From positions 51,556-115,555 of IMG/VR virus record IMGVR_UViG_3300049460_000134: a stretch of DNA of 64,000 nt. The stretch is one strand, 5' to 3'. The notes below the pieces were generated by a model. That model made no database searches. It saw only the letters and a list, made by a program, of their open reading frames with translations, and had not been told where the DNA came from. Numbering within the stretch: position 1 is the stretch's first letter; every line of letters starts with the position of its first letter. This document shows, piece by piece, positions 2,230-52,296 of this stretch. A program made the translations under genes and the position numbers. Source of the DNA: a virus.

Positions 2230-3912
2230 ATGCGACAAGATTATGCCTGGCTGAACCAGGTGGCTCTAACTACGCTCTCGCGCGGCTATCTGCGCGAGGG
2301 CATCGCGCCTGAGAACCTCAAGGAAGAGGCGATCGCGCGTGTCAATGCCATCGTAGATCGTGCAGAAGAAATCCTCGGTTTTGAACTGCCGACGCTGCGC
2401 CTGGGCGTCAAGCGCGGTTGGGTCTCACCCGCCTCTCCGATCTGGTCGAACTTCGGCGCTGGGCGCGGTCTGCCGATTAGCTGCAACGGCAGCTTCATGG
2501 CCGACGACATGGACTCCATTCTCTTCAAGAATGCCGAGATTGGCATGATGACGAAGGAAGGCGCTGGCACTTCTGTCTATATGGGCAAGCTGCGTCCGTT
2601 CGGCTCTGCTATCTCTGGCGGTGGACGCTCGGAAGGTCCGACGCATTTCGCTCGGCTGCCGCAGGAACAGGTGACTGTCGTCTCGCAGGGCAACACGCGC
2701 CGCGGCAATGCAGCCGTCTACCTCGATATCGAGCATGAAGACGCCGAGCGCTGGCTGGATATGCGTTCGATCTCTGGTGGCGTGCACCATCCGATCCAGC
2801 ATCTTTCGTTCGGCGTGGTCATCGGCGACGACTGGATGAACGCGATGCTCGCCGAAGAAAAGGGCGGTCCTAAGCGCAAGCTGATGGCGAAGATTCGCAA
2901 CAAGCGGCGCGAGACTGGCTTTCCCTACATTGTCTTCCGCGACAACGCCAACAATGCTCGCCCGGAAGTGCTGAAGCGGCTTGGTCTGCTGATCTATGCC
3001 TCGAACCTGTGCACTGAGGTCATGCTGCCGTCCGGTCCCGACGAAAGCTTCGTCTGTGATCTGTCCTCGGTCAATGCGCTCTATTACCACGAGTGGAAGA
3101 GCACGCCGTTCGTCCGCGAAATGATCTACATGCTCGACGCGGTGATGACGGAATACATCGAGAAGATCCGCGGTGTCCGGCTGCTCGCTGATGCGCTTCG
3201 CTTTGCAGAACGCTGGCGCGCTCTTGGTCTCGGTGTTCTCGGCTGGCATTCGCTGCTGCAATCGCAGATGATCGCCATCGAAAGCGATGAGGCTCGAGCG
3301 CTGAATATCGAAATCAGCGAGTATCTCGCCACCGAGTCACACGCCGCATCCCGCGACCTCGCCGAACGTCTTGGAGAGCCGGAAGGGCTGAAGGGCACTG
3401 GCTACCGCAACCTGACGGTTAATGCGATCGCGCCTACCACATCCTCGTCGATCATCTGCGGCCAAGTTTCGCAGCAACGCGAGCCTTGGACTGCAAATAT
3501 CTTCGAGAACGACAATGCCAAGGGCGTTTTCACGCAGCGCAACGTGTTCCTTGAGGAGCTGCTCGAAAGCAAGGGGCGCAACGACCAGCAGACTTGGCTC
3601 TCGATCTTGCAGAATGCCGGCTCCGTGCAACATTTGGACTTCCTGACGCAGCACGAGCGCAACGTCTTCAAGACCTTTGCCGAGATCGACCAGGCAGAGC
3701 TGATCCGTCAGACTGCGGACTGCCAGAAGTATATCGATCAGGGCATCAGTCATAACATCATCCTGCCGCCCGAAGCGACGATGAAGGAAGATATCGATCT
3801 GATCGTGTTGGCGTGGAGAAGCGGTTTGAAATCGCTCTACTATCGCAAGGGCTTGAACAAGGCACAGGAACTGGCTCGCCAGAATGCTTCCTGCGTGGCG
3901 TGTGAGGCGTAA
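2230..3912 (+). CDS. nrdA: Ribonucleotide reductase class I alpha subunit (short, no ATP cone)
   Basis: ISCN, SNLCTE, APTTSSS and KSLYY motifs; C-terminal CVACE. Confidence 0.95.
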   Translation: MRQDYAWLNQVALTTLSRGYLREGIAPENLKEEAIARVNAIVDRAEEILGFELPTLRLGVKRGWVSPASPIWSNFGAGRGLPISCNGSFMADDMDSILFKNAEIGMMTKEGAGTSVYMGKLRPFGSAISGGGRSEGPTHFARLPQEQVTVVSQGNTRRGNAAVYLDIEHEDAERWLDMRSISGGVHHPIQHLSFGVVIGDDWMNAMLAEEKGGPKRKLMAKIRNKRRETGFPYIVFRDNANNARPEVLKRLGLLIYASNLCTEVMLPSGPDESFVCDLSSVNALYYHEWKSTPFVREMIYMLDAVMTEYIEKIRGVRLLADALRFAERWRALGLGVLGWHSLLQSQMIAIESDEARALNIEISEYLATESHAASRDLAERLGEPEGLKGTGYRNLTVNAIAPTTSSSIICGQVSQQREPWTANIFENDNAKGVFTQRNVFLEELLESKGRNDQQTWLSILQNAGSVQHLDFLTQHERNVFKTFAEIDQAELIRQTADCQKYIDQGISHNIILPPEATMKEDIDLIVLAWRSGLKSLYYRKGLNKAQELARQNASCVACEA

Positions 3913-3913
3913 G

Positions 3914-4156
3914 ATGAGTATTCACGTTCTCATCCGATCCAATCCACCCTGTCCTTCCTGCCTCAAGACAAAAGCGCTCCTTGAGCGGCGCGGTCTGGCC
4001 TTCACGGCAGAAGATCACGAGACGCCGGAGAAGGTTGAGACCTTCGTCGCTGCCGGCCATCGCACCTTTCCGCGCGTCTTCATTGACGACAAGCTGATAG
4101 GTGGCTTCGAAGATCTCGAACGCCATCTTGCTTCGCTGGAAGATGACGATTTCTGA
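3914..4156 (+). CDS. Glutaredoxin/NrdH-like redoxin
   Basis: CPSC, TFPRVF and IGGF motifs; follows nrdA. Confidence 0.9.
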   Translation: MSIHVLIRSNPPCPSCLKTKALLERRGLAFTAEDHETPEKVETFVAAGHRTFPRVFIDDKLIGGFEDLERHLASLEDDDF

Positions 4157-4337
4157 GAAATAGCGCTTGCGTCCCAATCGCGCATCGTTATAAATGCTCT
4201 TGTAAGTAAATACTGACTGACACGAAAGCGATGTGTCAGTCAGTTCCAGCGATCGAAGATCAACCGCTCTACGAGGTGTCGCCTTATGAACCGCTAAGTC
4301 GGGTTTATCAGTCAAAATTGATTAAGAAAAAGACGTC

Positions 4338-4473
4338 GCCAGGAGCCGTCAGAAAATAAACCTGGCTCTTATGTGAGTGGAGCGCGAAGGCTGAGCTAAA
4401 GGCCTGTTGTATTCGCGATGCAGCGAAACGAGAAAACCGGATTCTCGCGTAGCGGGCTCCGCTCACATAAGAG
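4338..4473 (+). ncRNA. Candidate structured RNA (18-bp closing stem enclosing three hairpins)
   Basis: 4366-4383 pairs with 4456-4473; internal hairpins at about 4388-4405, 4406-4424 and 4429-4447; no ORF. Confidence 0.5.
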
Positions 4474-4544
4474 ACCTGACGAGGACTGCGGTGAAGTCTC
4501 TCGCTTACAAGCGTGGCTAGGGTTCGAGTCCCTTAAGGGTCGCC
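4473..4544 (+). ncRNA. tRNA-like element (atypical or degenerate)
   Basis: T-arm AGGG-TTCGAGT-CCCT, GG-containing D-like loop, GACC/GGTC acceptor pairing; anticodon loop of only 6 nt (TTACAA); no CCA. Confidence 0.45.
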
Positions 4545-4571
4545 TGTTCAACACCTACTGAGGAGAAGCGC

Positions 4572-5326: not shown

Positions 5327-5531
5327 AGACAGGCATACGCCGAAGTTGAAGCAGATCGCCGGTCTCATCCAGGGACTGACCTTCCGCGAAATGCAGCATA
5401 TCTCGGAATTGCTGAGGGATGAGCTGCAAGTGAGCGGCTCAATGCCTGTTACCGATGCGCTGCTAAAAGTTGCCGACAATCTTCTCGGCTTCGACACGCA
5501 GACCGGAATTCCCTTTCGTTCCGCTTCCTGA
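5301..5531 (+). CDS. Hypothetical protein
   Basis: AGGAG SD before ATG at 5301. Confidence 0.6.
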
Positions 5532-5550
5532 AACAATAAGGACACCTCCT

Positions 5551-6546
5551 TTGACCTTTCTCATCAATGACCCTGTGACGAAGATCACCGGCGACTACAG
5601 CTTCGACGGCACGGTCGTCGCAGCATTCGACAAGCAGGACGGCAAGCAACGCTACGTCGTCGAGGACGATCGCGGCGCGCTGCATATCTACAGCGAACAG
5701 AACCTCCGGCTGATCGGCAACATGGCTGATCACCAGTATCTGCGTGTCCTCAAGAAGCTGCTCGACAAGGGCGTCTATCGCGAAGGTCGCAACGGCGGCA
5801 CTTATGGTCTCTTCGGCGAACAGATGCGCTTCGACCTCTCTCGCGGCTTCCCGCTGCTGACGACCAAGAAGGTTCACTTCCACTCCATCGTCGTTGAATT
5901 GCTCTGGTTCCTCCGCGGCGAGACGAACATCAAGTTTCTGAAGGACCATAACGTCTCGATCTGGGATGAATGGGCTGACGAGAAGGGTGATCTTGGTCCG
6001 GTCTACGGCGCGCAGTGGCGCACCTGGCCGACGATCGAGCATCAGTGCGCCGATATCTACTATCCCGGCCACATCGACCAGATCCAGAAGGTGATCGACG
6101 GCCTCAAGCGCGATTCATACGGTCGCCGGCACATCGTCTCGGCATGGAATCCGGCTGAGATCGATGAAATGGCGCTTCCGCCCTGTCACTGCCTCTTCCA
6201 GTTCTTCGTGTCTGACAACAAGCTGAGCTGCCAACTCTACCAGAGGAGCGCAGATTGGTTTTTGGGGGTCCCATTCAACGTTGCCTCATACGCGCTGCTG
6301 ACCATGCTGATTGCGCGCGAAACCGGCCTTCAGCTTGGCGAATTCGTGCATAGCTTCGGCGATCTGCACCTCTACGCCAATCACATCGAGCAGGCCAAGG
6401 AGCAGCTCACTCGCGAGCCGCGCAAGTTGCCGAAGGTGCTCATCAATCCGGACATCGACAAGCACATCTTCGACCTGGAAGTCGGTGACGTCGCTCTCGT
6501 CAACTACGATCCCCATCCAGCGATCAAAGCGCCGGTCTCAGCGTAA
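5551..6546 (+). CDS. thyA: Thymidylate synthase with N-terminal DfrB/R67-like SH3 domain
   Basis: [27 protein letters not shown] and PFN motifs; probable TTG start at 5551 gives a ~57-aa N-terminal domain resembling R67 DHFR. Confidence 0.92.
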
Positions 6547-6836: not shown

Positions 6837-7304
6837 ATGGGCGGCACGCTCATTGAACAGACCAAGGTTATCGTGAGCAAGGTTCACGAGAAGGCATTCA
6901 TTCCGACATACGGATCTGACGAGGCGGCCGGCGCTGACCTTTACGCTGTTGTCGATGGTCCGGACGCTATCCCGGTTCCGGTCGGCGAGCGCGTGCTCGT
7001 CAAGACCGGCTTGTCGATCGAGCTCCTGCCTGGCTACGAAGCCCAGGTGCGTCCTCGTTCCGGTCTGGCACTGAAGCAGGGCATCACGGTCCTCAACACG
7101 CCTGGCACGATCGACAGCGACTATCGCGGCGAGGTTGGCGTCATCCTTTATAACGCTGGCAACCGGACGTATTTCGTCAACCACGGCGATCGCATCGCTC
7201 AGTTGGTGATTGCGCCTGTCGTGCGCGGTGTCTTCGTTGTCGGCGAACTCAGCGACAGTAACCGCGGCGAAGGTGGCTTTGGCTCGACTGGAGTTTCCGC
7301 CTAA
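6837..7304 (+). CDS. dut: Trimeric dUTPase
   Basis: AGADL, RPRSG, GTIDSDYRGE, RIAQL and RGEGGFGSTG motifs. Confidence 0.97.
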   Translation: MGGTLIEQTKVIVSKVHEKAFIPTYGSDEAAGADLYAVVDGPDAIPVPVGERVLVKTGLSIELLPGYEAQVRPRSGLALKQGITVLNTPGTIDSDYRGEVGVILYNAGNRTYFVNHGDRIAQLVIAPVVRGVFVVGELSDSNRGEGGFGSTGVSA

Positions 7305-7924
7305 TGCTCTACGGCATCTGCGGTGCTCATCGCAGTGGAAAAACCACACTTGCCAAGCGCGTCGCGGAAGAACTTGGTATCGAGTTCATCGATACCTCGT
7401 TCGGCTCCATCAGCAAGGGCAAACGCAATCCGGTCGCTCCCATGACTCTCAGGGAGCGGCTCGACATTCAGGTTCACGGCCTGGAACGCCACCTGGAGCT
7501 CATCCTTCAGGCAAGCCGGCCGGCAATCGTCGATCGCACGCCGCTCGACATGTTCGGCTATCTCCTCGCAGAATTTCACATGACCTCCGATCGCCATGCT
7601 GATGCGGACGTCCTGGAAGGAGCTGCCTACCTCGCCGAGCAATACCTCGAGGCTGTGAAGCTCAACTACGACATGGTCTTCTTCACGGAGATCCTGCCGG
7701 TCTACGAGGTCGATACCTCGAAGCCGACGCCGCCAAACAATCGTGCCTTCCAGCTTCACCTGGACGCGATCATCCGCGGCGGTCTGCATCGGCTCCATGA
7801 CGAGATCAACCATGCCGTTGTGCCAGCGATACCGCTTGCGGAGCGCGTGGAACAGGTCTCGGAACTGATCGTGGAGCGGATGAACGAAATCGACGACCAG
7901 CGCAAAGCCGTCGGATTCCACTAA
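7304..7924 (+). CDS. P-loop nucleotide kinase-like protein (AAA_28/NadR-like)
   Basis: GAHRSGKTT Walker A; IVDRTPLD. Confidence 0.75.
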   Translation: MLYGICGAHRSGKTTLAKRVAEELGIEFIDTSFGSISKGKRNPVAPMTLRERLDIQVHGLERHLELILQASRPAIVDRTPLDMFGYLLAEFHMTSDRHADADVLEGAAYLAEQYLEAVKLNYDMVFFTEILPVYEVDTSKPTPPNNRAFQLHLDAIIRGGLHRLHDEINHAVVPAIPLAERVEQVSELIVERMNEIDDQRKAVGFH

Positions 7925-8020
7925 GCCACACGAAAAAGCCACGCGCATCCCAACTGCGCGTGAGCTATTCAGTAATTATTGACTGACAACAAACAAGAAC
8001 AGACACAAGGAGACAGAAGC

Positions 8021-10357
8021 ATGGAAGTTTCGCAGCTTGCGCAGCTCGACACACACGCCGTCATCGGCGGTGAAGATCCTGAAGCGTTCGGCATGGCTGA
8101 TACTCCAGAATTCTATCAGATGCTCTCAGCCAGCATCTATCGCGACAAGATCCGCGCAGTCGTGCGCGAGACGATCTGCAATGGCTGGGACGCGCATATC
8201 ATGGGCGGCTGCACCGACAAGGCAGTGCAAGTTACACTCACGGACGAGGAGCTTGTCATCAAGGACTTCGGTCCCGGCATTCCGCATGAGAAGATGCGGC
8301 CGATCTATTGCATCTACGGCGTTTCGACGAAGGTGAAGGATGAGAGCCAGACCGGCGGTTTCGGTCTCGGATCCAAGTCGCCATTCGCCGTCACCGATCA
8401 CTTCTCCGTCGTCTCGTGCTTTGCAGGCACACGCTCTGTCTATGCCATCTCTCGCGGTGGCAAAGCTACAAGCGGCAAGCCTGACATGCGCCGCATGGTC
8501 GCCGTGCCGACAACCGAAAGCGGCGTCACTGTCACGGTCCCGATCAAAAAGGAAGAGCGCGAGAGCTTTGCCAAGCACATTCGCGCCGTTGCAAAGCAGG
8601 GCGGCATGCTGGTGACGCTGAACGGCGAACTTCTGGAGCGCTTCGATTACGAGGAGGCGCGCAAGACTGAGTTCTGCGTCGTCGCGCCTCACTGGATGCA
8701 CGAAAGCCGCATCTATACGCTCTACGGCACCGTCCTCTATCCGGTGATGACGACCGACCCTGATATCTCCAAGCTGACACGCGATATCGAAGGCCTGATC
8801 GGCTACGGCTCGACGCTGGTTATCGTTGCCCCGCCGAATTCAGTCGAAGTCACGCCGTCGCGCGAGTCCCTCTCTTTTACGGATGGAACCACCGACACCA
8901 TCAAGCGGCTGCTCGACAAGGCATGCACGCGCATCAGCAAGGCAATTCCGGCAGCTACTAAGCTCGCTGTCGATGCACGCGTTGCAAAGAACGGCCGCCT
9001 AGCGCTCGCGAGCAAGATCCACGCGATCAGAGAGGTGCCTGAGAAGGTTCTCTCCAGTGCGCTCGCGATCGCCGAGCACGCCGTCCGCTCGAATCCTGAT
9101 AACCATATCCAGTATGATCGACAGCGGCGCCTATGCCTTCAGGCAGCGCAGCGACTGTTCAAAGATGATCGCCGCACCTTCCGCCGTGCGCTGAAGCGTG
9201 GTTACAACGCTGGCGAGGACAGCTTCAAGGCGTCGAGCAAGCCGCTCATCCGCATTGCCTCGAAGATGGGCATGCTGAAGGATGCGCACCTCTTCAACAT
9301 CTACGCCTATCGCTACCAGACGATCGGCTCCAAGACCAATCCGCTGAAGGAGCACGACACCGGGGTCGTTAGGCCTGTCCTTTGCGTGGCGCGCAATCTG
9401 CGCGATCTGCGACCGACGATGAGCGGTGCAAGCAGCGGTTTTCCGCCGGACAAGGATAGCTTCATCGCCGGCCTGGTCATGCGCCAGTGGACTGCGGAGC
9501 GCCTGAAGCAGCTTCGCGCGCTCGCCGAGCACTACAAGCTGAAGCTGGTCATCTTCGATTACGAAGCAGCGAAGAAGCCGAAGAAAGCACCGGTCAAGCG
9601 CGAAAAGATCGTCGACAAGTATTTCGCCCTTGGTGATTTCAGGGGAACGACTTGCGAAACGGCAAACCTCGAAAATCCGAAATACTTCCTGATGAGCTTT
9701 GCGCGCGAAGGCATGCGTTCGCCCTTTCAGGATGAAGGCCATCAATACCACCACCTTCTTGCGAAGCGCTATCCGGAGACGGCTGTCATTTCGTCCAAGA
9801 CAGACGCTGAGAAGCTGATGAAGCGCGGCGCAGTCAATCTGACCGGTGTCATTGCCAAGCGCATTGCGGAGCTCGCTGGGGTCCGTGAGGTCCAATACGC
9901 TTACGCGATCCGCGAAGGCCTGATGTGCAACGGCAATTATCACCACTACCCATCAGACCTGGCCATTTCGTTCGCCAAGCTCGACATGCGGATTGCAAAG
10001 CGCCTGTTCCCCGACAAGGCGACGCCTGGCGCTCTCGCTGAAGAAGGCTTGCTTCTGAACGACGTGATGAACTCGCTGCGGCTCGATTATCAGGACCGCA
10101 ACTGCGGCGGCAATGAAGCCAAGCTCAAGATCTGGACGTCTGCGAGAGAGACCTACAAGGCCATGACCACGTCATATGCCGACCAGAAATTCAGTTACTT
10201 GAGCGTCCTGGCAGGCATCAGAGTTACCGGCGGCATCAAACGCAAGATCGATGATCTCCACGACATCATCGTCTTTTTGCAGGACCGCGAGAGTAAGTCA
10301 AAATTGACTGAATCCCTTTTGAACCCAATTGCTAACGCCCAGAAGGAGGCAGCATGA
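8021..10357 (+). CDS. rIIA: rIIA-like protein (GHKL ATPase N-terminus)
   Basis: RETICNGWDA, DFGPGI and GGFGLGSKSPFA motifs; adjacent to rIIB. Confidence 0.88.
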   Translation: MEVSQLAQLDTHAVIGGEDPEAFGMADTPEFYQMLSASIYRDKIRAVVRETICNGWDAHIMGGCTDKAVQVTLTDEELVIKDFGPGIPHEKMRPIYCIYGVSTKVKDESQTGGFGLGSKSPFAVTDHFSVVSCFAGTRSVYAISRGGKATSGKPDMRRMVAVPTTESGVTVTVPIKKEERESFAKHIRAVAKQGGMLVTLNGELLERFDYEEARKTEFCVVAPHWMHESRIYTLYGTVLYPVMTTDPDISKLTRDIEGLIGYGSTLVIVAPPNSVEVTPSRESLSFTDGTTDTIKRLLDKACTRISKAIPAATKLAVDARVAKNGRLALASKIHAIREVPEKVLSSALAIAEHAVRSNPDNHIQYDRQRRLCLQAAQRLFKDDRRTFRRALKRGYNAGEDSFKASSKPLIRIASKMGMLKDAHLFNIYAYRYQTIGSKTNPLKEHDTGVVRPVLCVARNLRDLRPTMSGASSGFPPDKDSFIAGLVMRQWTAERLKQLRALAEHYKLKLVIFDYEAAKKPKKAPVKREKIVDKYFALGDFRGTTCETANLENPKYFLMSFAREGMRSPFQDEGHQYHHLLAKRYPETAVISSKTDAEKLMKRGAVNLTGVIAKRIAELAGVREVQYAYAIREGLMCNGNYHHYPSDLAISFAKLDMRIAKRLFPDKATPGALAEEGLLLNDVMNSLRLDYQDRNCGGNEAKLKIWTSARETYKAMTTSYADQKFSYLSVLAGIRVTGGIKRKIDDLHDIIVFLQDRESKSKLTESLLNPIANAQKEAA

Positions 10358-51022: not shown

Positions 51023-52296
51023 TGGGAGCCAATGTCATTCTGAAAGCCCACAAGGGGCAGAAGCTCGTCCTGAAGGACCGCCGGCGTTTCAAGGTGATCG
51101 TCGCCGGCCGCCGCTGGGGCAAGACGCAGATTTCTAAGATCGCGCTGATTAAGGCTGCATGCACGCGCCGCAATCAGCTCGTCTGGTATGTCGCGCCGAC
51201 CTATCAGATGGCTCGACAGATCCTTTGGGAAGACCTGAAGCGCTGTATTCCGAAGAAGCTGATCGTCTGGAACGGCATCAACGAAACACGCATGACTATC
51301 CGGCTCATCAACGGCTCGCGGATTGAGCTGAAGGGCGCCGACAATCCGGACTCGCTCCGCGGTGTTGGTATCAACTTCCTCGTCCTCGACGAATTCCAGG
51401 ACATGAAGAAGGAGACCTGGGAAGAGGTTCTGCGTCCGACCCTGGCGTCCACCGGCGGCCAGGTCATCTTCATCGGCACGCCGAAGCAGTTCAACCACCT
51501 CTACGACATGTATGTCCTGGGTCAGCGTGGCGACACCTATGTCGACGAAAAGGGCAAGGTCGTCATCAACCAGTGGAAGAGCTGGCAGTTCCCGACGATC
51601 ATGTCGCCATTCATTCCGCGATCGGAAATCGAGCACGCTCGCCGCGAAATGGATCCGAAGACCTTCCGCCAGGAGTTCGAGGCAAGCTTCGAGAGCATGT
51701 CCGGCCGCGTCTACTACGCCTTCGAGCGTCGCGAGCATGTGAAGCGCTGCGAATTCGATCCGCGCAAGCCGATCATCATCGGCCAGGACTTCAACATCGA
51801 CCCGATGTCCTCGGTCGTTATGCAGATCCAGGACAACGGCGAGATCCATGTGATCGACGAGATCATCCTTTACGGCTCCAACACGCAGGAAACAGCCGAC
51901 GAGGTGGCTCGTCGCTATCACCGCCAGATGAACCAGATCACATTCTATCCAGACCCTGCCGGCAACAACCGGTCACATGGGCGAGGGGAGTCTGACCTCG
52001 ACATCCTGCGCGATGCCGGCTTTAAGCGGATCATCTTCAAGCGCAAGCATCCGGCCGTCTCCGATCGCGTCAACTCGGTCAACCGATTGCTGCGCTCGGC
52101 CGAAGGCACGATCCGAATGTATTTCGATCCGAAGTGCAAGAAGACGATCGAGGCGATGGAGCAGACGATCTACAAGCCTGGAACGCGTGAGGTGGATAAG
52201 AAGATGGGCGTCGAACACCCTGCCGACGCGCTCGGCTATTTCACCGATTACGAATATCCAGTCCGCAAGGTCGAGATTCTTGGTGTCAGCCTTTAA
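51022..52296 (+). CDS. terL: Terminase large subunit
   Basis: AGRRWGKT, LVLDE, GTP, GQDFN and HPADA motifs. Confidence 0.95.
   Translation: MGANVILKAHKGQKLVLKDRRRFKVIVAGRRWGKTQISKIALIKAACTRRNQLVWYVAPTYQMARQILWEDLKRCIPKKLIVWNGINETRMTIRLINGSRIELKGADNPDSLRGVGINFLVLDEFQDMKKETWEEVLRPTLASTGGQVIFIGTPKQFNHLYDMYVLGQRGDTYVDEKGKVVINQWKSWQFPTIMSPFIPRSEIEHARREMDPKTFRQEFEASFESMSGRVYYAFERREHVKRCEFDPRKPIIIGQDFNIDPMSSVVMQIQDNGEIHVIDEIILYGSNTQETADEVARRYHRQMNQITFYPDPAGNNRSHGRGESDLDILRDAGFKRIIFKRKHPAVSDRVNSVNRLLRSAEGTIRMYFDPKCKKTIEAMEQTIYKPGTREVDKKMGVEHPADALGYFTDYEYPVRKVEILGVSL

Follow-up and report, generated by a model that had tools for sequence, protein, structure and literature searches.

The 64,000-nucleotide stretch analysed here, referred to below as the window, corresponds to positions 51,556 to 115,555 of IMG/VR record IMGVR_UViG_3300049460_000134, a complete virus record of 115,555 bp that is bounded by terminal repeats and that, among cultured phages, is most closely related to Rhizobium phage RHEph10 and the RHph_N1_10 group. 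On its plus strand, at positions 5551–6546, lies a gene whose predicted product of 331 amino acid (aa) residues joins a small SH3-like barrel to a thymidylate synthase (TS) of the ThyA type. An initial annotation, made from the sequence alone, had read this gene as an in-frame fusion of an R67/DfrB-like (type II) dihydrofolate reductase (DHFR) domain to TS, and it is this reading that the present computational analysis follows up.

The frame holding the gene is open from position 5470 to the TAA codon at 6544–6546, with no stop codon in between, which bears out the earlier statement that the N-terminal extension runs uninterrupted into ThyA; the extension residues quoted at that time are also identical to our translation. 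The upstream open reading frame (ORF) ends with TGA at 5529–5531 and is followed by a Shine-Dalgarno-like (SD) AAGGA element, identified by direct reading of the sequence, at 5538–5542 on the plus strand, 8 nt 5′ of the in-frame TTG start codon at 5551–5553. With initiation at this codon, the N-terminus matches in length those of stand-alone homologues such as P0005. The extension thus comprises residues 1–57 and ThyA residues 58–331: residues 1–54 (5551–5712) form the DfrB/R67-like SH3 barrel, as delimited by AlphaFold2, Foldseek and hhalign together with family size and dN/dS; a three-residue Ile-Gly-Asn linker (5713–5721), recognised from the full-length AlphaFold2 model and from conservation of the junction, connects the barrel to the first TS helix; and the ThyA domain with its stop codon, assigned with Pfam PF00303 and NCBIfam NF002497, occupies 5722–6546. 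The internal ATG at 5722 is preceded by the stretch ctgatcggcaacATG, in which no purine-rich SD-like run occurs, and the letters directly 5′ of it, ctgatcggcaac, likewise lack such a run, whereas AAGGA is present before 5551; the initial annotation was therefore right in finding no clear SD ahead of the internal ATG. The extension could also be read as a small gene of its own ahead of thyA, but this was rejected because there is no stop codon between the two parts and because the junction is conserved.

Translation of the extension was examined by comparing six fused phage loci, namely the window, L003 (phage RHph_N1_10), L018, L019, L020 and L027. All six possess a TTG or ATG codon immediately upstream of the domain in flanking DNA that has otherwise diverged, with TTG at the equivalent position in L003, L018 and L019 and ATG nearby in L020 and L027. 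A TAAGGA-type SD precedes the start by an equal distance in five of them (the window, L003, L018, L019 and L020), and no such element is apparent ahead of the candidate starts of L027. Among the same loci the extension is under purifying selection, with pairwise dN/dS values of 0.06–0.36 at dS of approximately 0.7–2. A search with residues 1–57 against a collection of 5.8 billion proteins returned 18 further fused proteins of 322–340 aa, every one of which contains PF00303, and alignment of these with the window protein (19 sequences; alignment A3) revealed that the junction, NLRxIGNxADHQYL, is conserved. The internal Met58, by contrast, is Met in just eight of the 19 and is otherwise A, D, S, N, K, Y, W, L, Q or R, so that in most fused homologues, the 11 without this Met, ThyA cannot start internally.

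The domain is overlooked in current phage records. By tblastn the extension is present at 84–90% identity in Rhizobium phages RHEph10, RHph_N1_10, N1_15 and N2_6, and the five GenBank records of these four cultured phages hold no feature over the 51–57-codon domain; the domain is accordingly unannotated in at least five GenBank phage records. In RHph_N1_10 (MN988505.1) it lies at 88676–88846 (L003 2501–2671), and the feature table of this phage has thyA annotated from the internal ATG; the other unannotated records are MN988506.1, MN988543.1 and JX483881.1/NC_034248.1 (61501–61653). The true product in these Rhizobium phage records is probably the fusion.

The C-terminal part of the protein is a complete ThyA. 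PF00303 is matched over residues 61–330 with 373.6 bits (5.8e-112), covering profile positions 1–265 of 266, and the NCBIfam equivalog NF002497 scores 412.5 bits against a cut-off of 327. The catalytic cysteine, Cys212, is encoded at 6184–6186 (plus strand) within a PPCH motif, and this motif, RR192–193 and further core residues do not vary across the 19 fused proteins. After the QWR motif, ThyA carries a variable insertion (6022–6081; residues ~158–177) whose length differs by up to ~20 residues among the fused homologues and which is modelled, with low confidence, as two extra strands.

The N-terminal part of the protein was modelled with AlphaFold2 using an alignment of 69 sequences (A1) and folds into a five-stranded SH3-like barrel (strands at residues 8–11, 19–27, 33–38, 44–47 and 52–54) at a predicted local distance difference test score (pLDDT) of 96.3. 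When this model was compared with the Protein Data Bank (PDB) by Foldseek, ranks 1–7 were all R67 DHFR, with a template modelling (TM) score of 0.83, a root-mean-square deviation of 1.8–1.9 Å and 28–29% identity; E-values for the seven R67 entries ranged from 8.5e-4 to 4.4e-3, while the next matches, the eS4 KOW and Tudor domains, had values of 2e-2 or higher. Re-ranking by VIA-align indicates that the geometry of the fold is not enough to tell R67 apart from Tudor, KOW or chromo barrels, and for this reason the fold by itself was not counted as evidence of function. Profile-profile comparison by hhalign aligned A1, end to end over 65 columns, with the DfrB cores of 14 natural genes of plasmids and phages (alignment A2) at a probability of 92.6% and an E-value of 4.6e-7. 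Among the closest neighbours by ESM Atlas features is a viral PF06442 cluster, and DHFR_2 (PF06442) is the commonest weak Pfam match among family members (8 of 69, best E-value 0.021). Two further matches were obtained: a full-length match of the family profile to the sequence of the R67 Q67H mutant (2p4t), which at an E-value of 0.12 is insignificant alone and is mixed with chance matches such as cadherin and IFT144, and a weak Pfam match to CSD_RNase_II (E-value 0.0035, under the cut-off), which was set aside as generic barrel likeness.

The alignment with DfrB also sets out which residues correspond. Lys32 of DfrB1, at the mouth of the tunnel, binds the negative groups of dihydrofolate (DHF) and NADPH, and its equivalent by hhalign register is Lys11 (5581–5583, plus strand); a Lys occupies this position in 172 of the 176 family domains and in every one of the 19 fused proteins. 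Gly64 corresponds to Gly42, and the VQIY motif of the tunnel-lining B4 strand (DfrB1 residues 66–69) corresponds to Leu44-His45-Ile46-Tyr47 (5680–5691, plus strand) in alignments of the family with DfrB, in agreement with the equivalence of VQIY and LHIY that had been proposed from the sequence. Across the 176 domains LHIY is the most frequent B4 motif (74), followed by LHVY (38), LHIF (34) and LFIF (7). Conserved charges include the positive residues K11, K28, R34 and R41, while D15, E38, D39 and D40 are also conserved.

A HMMER scan of 1.84 billion cluster representatives placed the barrel in an almost exclusively viral family, with 678 clusters at E≤1e-3 (75 at E≤1e-10). Its consensus includes GDxVxKxGGDYxFxGxVV and, further on, (I/V)(Y/F), and residues Y16, G20, R34, E38 and L44 are invariants of its own. 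Most members are stand-alone proteins of 55–75 aa; others are longer, with the domain at their C-terminal end, and a few possess two or three copies. Tandem barrels in one chain are found in P0009, P0011 and P0014, with two matched stretches each, and P0102, a giant repetitive protein of 5135 aa, has three; such natural tandem duplications of the barrel resemble the engineered tandem R67. The domain was matched in 150 viral contigs. A peptide scan of bacterial genomes with the single protein found no relative, and a degenerate DNA pattern for VVEDDRGxLHI yielded one true copy and one chance match in 185,579 bacterial and archaeal species genomes; by these searches the LH(I/V)(Y/F) branch is nearly absent from bacterial species genomes. 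The true copy resides on a 38-kb contig of a gammaproteobacterial metagenome-assembled genome (CAYPGT010000010.1; L098 5660–5830), which may itself be viral. Canonical VQIY DfrB genes are common in other rhizobiophages (RHph_N3_2, RHph_Y2_6, RHEph16, phiM9 and others), so both DfrB branches circulate in phages of the same hosts; in RHph_N3_2 the VQIY DfrB domain is the C-terminus of a 208-aa protein.

A four-copy assembly of the barrel was predicted with NADP included, taking the median of three runs alongside three controls. The model reached an ipSAE of 0.78 (best control 0.01), with 100% contact agreement and a partner pLDDT of at least 89; in calibration, 20 of 30 proteins solved as pairs attained this ipSAE mark, as did one of 23 solved as single chains. 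Two kinds of contact were predicted, the first between residues 15–18 and 41–44, which are loops L1 and L3, and the second between residues 21–46 of two chains, where the β2 and neighbouring strands form a monomer–monomer interface. In R67 the dimer–dimer interface is built by W38 and H62, and it is the counterpart of the L1/L3 contacts in the model. The four-copy model thus predicts an R67-like assembly, which shows likeness and not binding, and since R67 tetramers are already in the PDB its score may reflect those known structures. In the full-length AlphaFold2 model (pLDDT 82.9) the final strand of the barrel runs to residue 54 and the first TS helix begins with residue 58.

The fusion gene sits in a block of nucleotide-metabolism genes. 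Upstream, on the plus strand, are the large subunit of ribonucleotide reductase (2230–3912; PF02867, 1.1e-83) and a glutaredoxin (3884–4156; PF00462, 7.3e-9); downstream are a dUTPase (6837–7304, plus strand; PF00692, 3.5e-29) and a P-loop kinase-like protein (7304–7924). dUTPase supplies deoxyuridine monophosphate (dUMP) for TS. FolA (PF00186) was matched neither in the fusion protein nor anywhere in the 115,555-bp genome, which extends to the whole genome the earlier remark that no folA is present in the window. For some 400 bp after the glutaredoxin gene (4157–4571), before a further plausible gene follows, only short overlapping ORFs are seen on both strands, and a weak terminator-like hairpin lies at 4388–4405. 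Directly after the block, at 7979–10357, is a gene for a 792-aa protein with a marginal match to a GHKL ATPase (HATPase_c_3; E-value 2.8e-5, 24.6 bits, just under the cut-off).

The neighbours of the domain were examined in 80 viral loci. ThyA was found within 6 kb in 27 of these, in at least five arrangements: the domain is fused to ThyA (four loci); it sits at the C-terminal end of a 150-aa protein encoded 13 nt upstream of thyA, as is typified by Pelagibacter phage Kolga (nine loci); it stands alone 230–340 nt upstream of thyA (seven loci); it closes a 191-aa protein encoded 32 nt ahead of a divergent ThyA (three loci); or thyA is directly upstream of it (one locus), the gene being more distant in the remaining three. 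Also common nearby is dCMP deaminase (18 loci), as are MazG-like pyrophosphohydrolases, replication proteins and GTP cyclohydrolase I. In 40 other viral records with the domain the ThyA family was present in 20, ThyX in one and FolA in none; this absence of FolA from all 40, which stands without a base rate from ThyA phages lacking the domain, is suggestive only. In 11 near-complete genomes with the domain the corresponding counts are seven, one and zero. The link between the domain and ThyA is hence strong, though not absolute.

Some of these loci deserve individual description. In Pelagibacter phage Kolga the 150-aa gp36 (L001 2716–3168) ends 4 nt before thyA, which encodes gp35 (3173–3958); the N-terminal part of gp36 has no NCBIfam match, and the protein may be a fusion of the NTP-pyrophosphohydrolase type mentioned by Lemay-St-Denis et al. 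(Mol Biol Evol 2025;42:msaf215, published September 2025; PMC12486381). In L040–L042 the 191-aa protein is followed by a divergent ThyA-family gene of 37% identity (e.g. L040 6194–7048), and in G009, G011, G012 and G029 the ThyA-family matches score just 49–67 bits; these genes could encode pyrimidine hydroxymethylases instead of thymidylate synthases.

The gene described in the initial annotation is thus confirmed and the interpretation given to it is supported. Based on these findings, we consider it likely, with a probability of roughly 0.8, that the gene at 5551–6546 encodes a bifunctional DfrB-TS in which a tetrameric tunnel reductase recycles the DHF produced by ThyA. Four barrels would assemble as in R67, with the β2 strands forming the monomer–monomer interfaces and loops L1 and L3 the dimer–dimer interface, and would enclose one central tunnel lined by Lys11 and the Leu-His-Ile-Tyr of the B4 strand, in which NADPH and DHF could be held together for hydride transfer. 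The ThyA domain, itself a dimer, would make thymidine monophosphate (dTMP) and DHF, and the fused reductase would return the latter to tetrahydrofolate; two ThyA dimers around one DfrB tetramer would produce a tetramer, or a higher assembly, of the fusion. The phage possesses ribonucleotide reductase, glutaredoxin, dUTPase and ThyA but no FolA, and the fusion would therefore close a thymidylate cycle of its own, which the phage may run during infection and which should be insensitive to trimethoprim.

That catalysis is expected of the window protein is by analogy with a published relative. The DfrB homologues of Lemay-St-Denis et al. fall into clusters, of which cluster II has varied B4 motifs, including LHIF (A0A6J5PTB3, active) and LHIY; 18 motifs, of a nonpolar–polar–nonpolar–aromatic type, were found active and both of these are listed as such in their Table 1 (PMC12486381). 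We place the barrel in this divergent, mostly viral cluster II branch. Its fold, its profile homology, its Lys32 equivalent and its B4 motif support membership of the DfrB superfamily in the broad sense of clusters I–II; it falls outside the narrow definition by PF06442, whose gathering cut-off it does not reach, and it does not have W38, Q67 and P70, which are invariant in DfrB1–10 and phage DfrBs.

Several observations nevertheless weigh against a reductase. The fusion protein has no match to DHFR_2 at E≤10, a six-frame search of the whole genome with PF06442 was empty, no family member reaches the gathering cut-off of that profile (25 bits), and BLASTP against DfrB1 returned no match; phmmer against the PDB gave no match to R67 and NCBIfam none linking the barrel to it. 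The R67 match that had been claimed consequently holds when sought by profile-profile comparison and by Foldseek, and fails with Pfam DHFR_2, BLASTP and phmmer. The DfrB invariants W38, T51, Q67 and P70 are not kept, the family having Phe or Tyr at the W38 position, His at Q67 and Ser at P70, and in addition the family has its own invariants Y16, R34 and E38, with an acidic EDDR stretch beside the tunnel strand. The likeness to the assayed enzyme described below consists of motif, architecture and percentage identity to DfrB1. Finally, three of the 11 near-complete genomes (G008, G030 and G037) have neither ThyA nor ThyX and one (G019) has ThyX; with four of 11 devoid of ThyA, the role of the domain is not always tied to a phage ThyA. 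In these four genomes the barrel might reduce DHF made by the host or have another role.

Such observations might be accommodated if the barrel were mainly an oligomerisation or ligand-binding module with negligible or incidental DHF reduction, tethering ThyA dimers, joining a complex for deoxynucleoside triphosphate synthesis, or binding a nucleotide or nucleic acid. Beyond the genomes without any thymidylate synthase, this possibility is in keeping with the many unrelated partners to which the family is fused, with its tandem copies and the 5135-aa protein, with Tudor- and KOW-type binding domains that match the fold nearly as well, with invariants (Y16, R34, E38 and DDR) that are not catalytic-tunnel residues of DfrB1, and with the proposal that binding was the ancestral role of the fold (PMC12486381). 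We regard it as unlikely, however, as a published LHIY fusion and an LHIF stand-alone protein of the same cluster are active reductases, all seven multi-domain fusions tested conferred trimethoprim resistance, and a predicted DfrB1-like tetramer, such as the barrel is predicted to form, almost always sufficed, with 114 of 123 homologues so predicted conferring resistance (PMC12486381); moreover, recurrent fusion or adjacency to the DHF-producing ThyA, combined with the absence of FolA, is what would be predicted of a reductase. It is very unlikely indeed that the extension is untranslated and ThyA begins at the ATG at 5722, the upstream frame being a leader or decayed remnant, since this reading, which the initial annotation had set against its own and which can point to the ATG itself, to the lack of a feature in the GenBank records of RHph_N1_10, N1_15, N2_6 and both RHEph10 entries, and to the thyA start annotated in RHph_N1_10, is contradicted by an SD before 5551 and none before 5722, by start and SD positions kept while their flanks diverged, by dN/dS of 0.06–0.36 at dS around 1, by other residues standing in place of the internal Met in 11 of the 19 fused homologues, and by an extension with a predicted fold at pLDDT 96 and a family of 678 clusters.

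If the gene indeed encodes a bifunctional DfrB-TS, its interest extends beyond a single locus. To our knowledge, DfrB is the only enzyme built from the SH3 fold. As the fusion is found in complete genomes related to cultured Rhizobium phages, its biology can be studied in a tractable phage–host pair. We would also tentatively suggest, at a little under even odds, that the LH(I/V)(Y/F) branch, the DfrB-TS fusion included, is essentially a bacteriophage invention. In that case the ‘bacterial’ DfrB-TS that was assayed would come from a phage or prophage, ThyA-positive phages lacking FolA would routinely complete the thymidylate cycle with a minimal tetrameric reductase, and phages would represent the natural reservoir of trimethoprim-insensitive reductases.

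The closest known system is the published DfrB-TS (BBD027md-00173_03685), an LHIY cluster II fusion to ThyA with 31% local identity to DfrB1 (PMC12486381). The purified protein was trimethoprim-resistant with a KM(DHF) of 28 μM and a kcat of 2.3 s−1, it formed tetramers and octamers, and both its reductase and its TS activities were verified (PMC12486381). The window protein shares with it the architecture of a DfrB-type SH3 domain joined to ThyA, the LHIY motif, a predicted DfrB1-like tetramer, which is defined in that study by β2/β2 monomer–monomer and L1/L3 dimer–dimer interfaces, a genome without FolA and a similar identity to DfrB1 (28–31% by structural alignment). The published protein derives from a microbial single-cell genome database and was described as bacterial, whereas the fusion in the window is phage-borne. 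In the same study no residue was conserved more strongly among active homologues than K32, and a positive tunnel potential was employed as a predictor of activity (PMC12486381).

Viral homologues of cluster II, for example A0A6J5PTB3, resemble the window domain in their LH(I/V)(Y/F) class, their K32 equivalent, a ThyA nearby and the absence of FolA. Four such homologues were reported, each with ThyA close by and no FolA in its genome (PMC12486381); one lies 5 bp from ThyA (PMC12486381), in a manner resembling Kolga gp36/gp35. They differ in being separate genes or fusions to NTP-pyrophosphohydrolase, a type of DfrB fusion known from that work, while the window domain is fused to ThyA itself. 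With 678 clusters and 18 further fusions, the cluster II family proves far bigger, and more confined to viruses, than these four members indicated. An earlier paper from the same group (PMC9835603) dealt with closer VQIY homologues, phage ones included.

DfrB1/R67 (PDB 1VIE, 2RK1 and 2P4T; PF06442) has in common with the window barrel a five-stranded barrel of ~55 residues, K32, G64 and the Ile-Tyr of VQIY, and the predicted D2 tetramer of the barrel uses the same interface elements. The engineered Q67H variant of R67 has His as at position 45 of the window protein, and its structure is the best PDB match. Relative to DfrB1/R67, the window barrel is one residue longer in loop L1 and two shorter in L3, is without a disordered N-terminal tail and has W38, T51, Q67 and P70 replaced; it is also viral and fused to ThyA, whereas R67 is integron- or plasmid-borne.

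FolA-type DHFR-TS enzymes occur in protozoa, plants and some eukaryotic viruses. They present the same order of domains, with the reductase N-terminal and TS C-terminal, and likewise unite two consecutive enzymes of the thymidylate cycle in one chain, but their reductase domain is unrelated and of ~160–230 residues, while the window barrel has 54 residues and no PF00186 match, would have to tetramerise to form a single active site and is connected by a linker of three residues. The DfrB-ThyA fusion represents convergent evolution with the eukaryotic FolA-TS fusions, as the initial annotation had supposed and as was also concluded in the study of the published DfrB-TS (PMC12486381). Given that this point was made and tested in 2025, the locus opens no new question; a DfrB-TS fusion of this kind has already been described and assayed (PMC12486381), and the phage-borne copy reported here is an addition to it.

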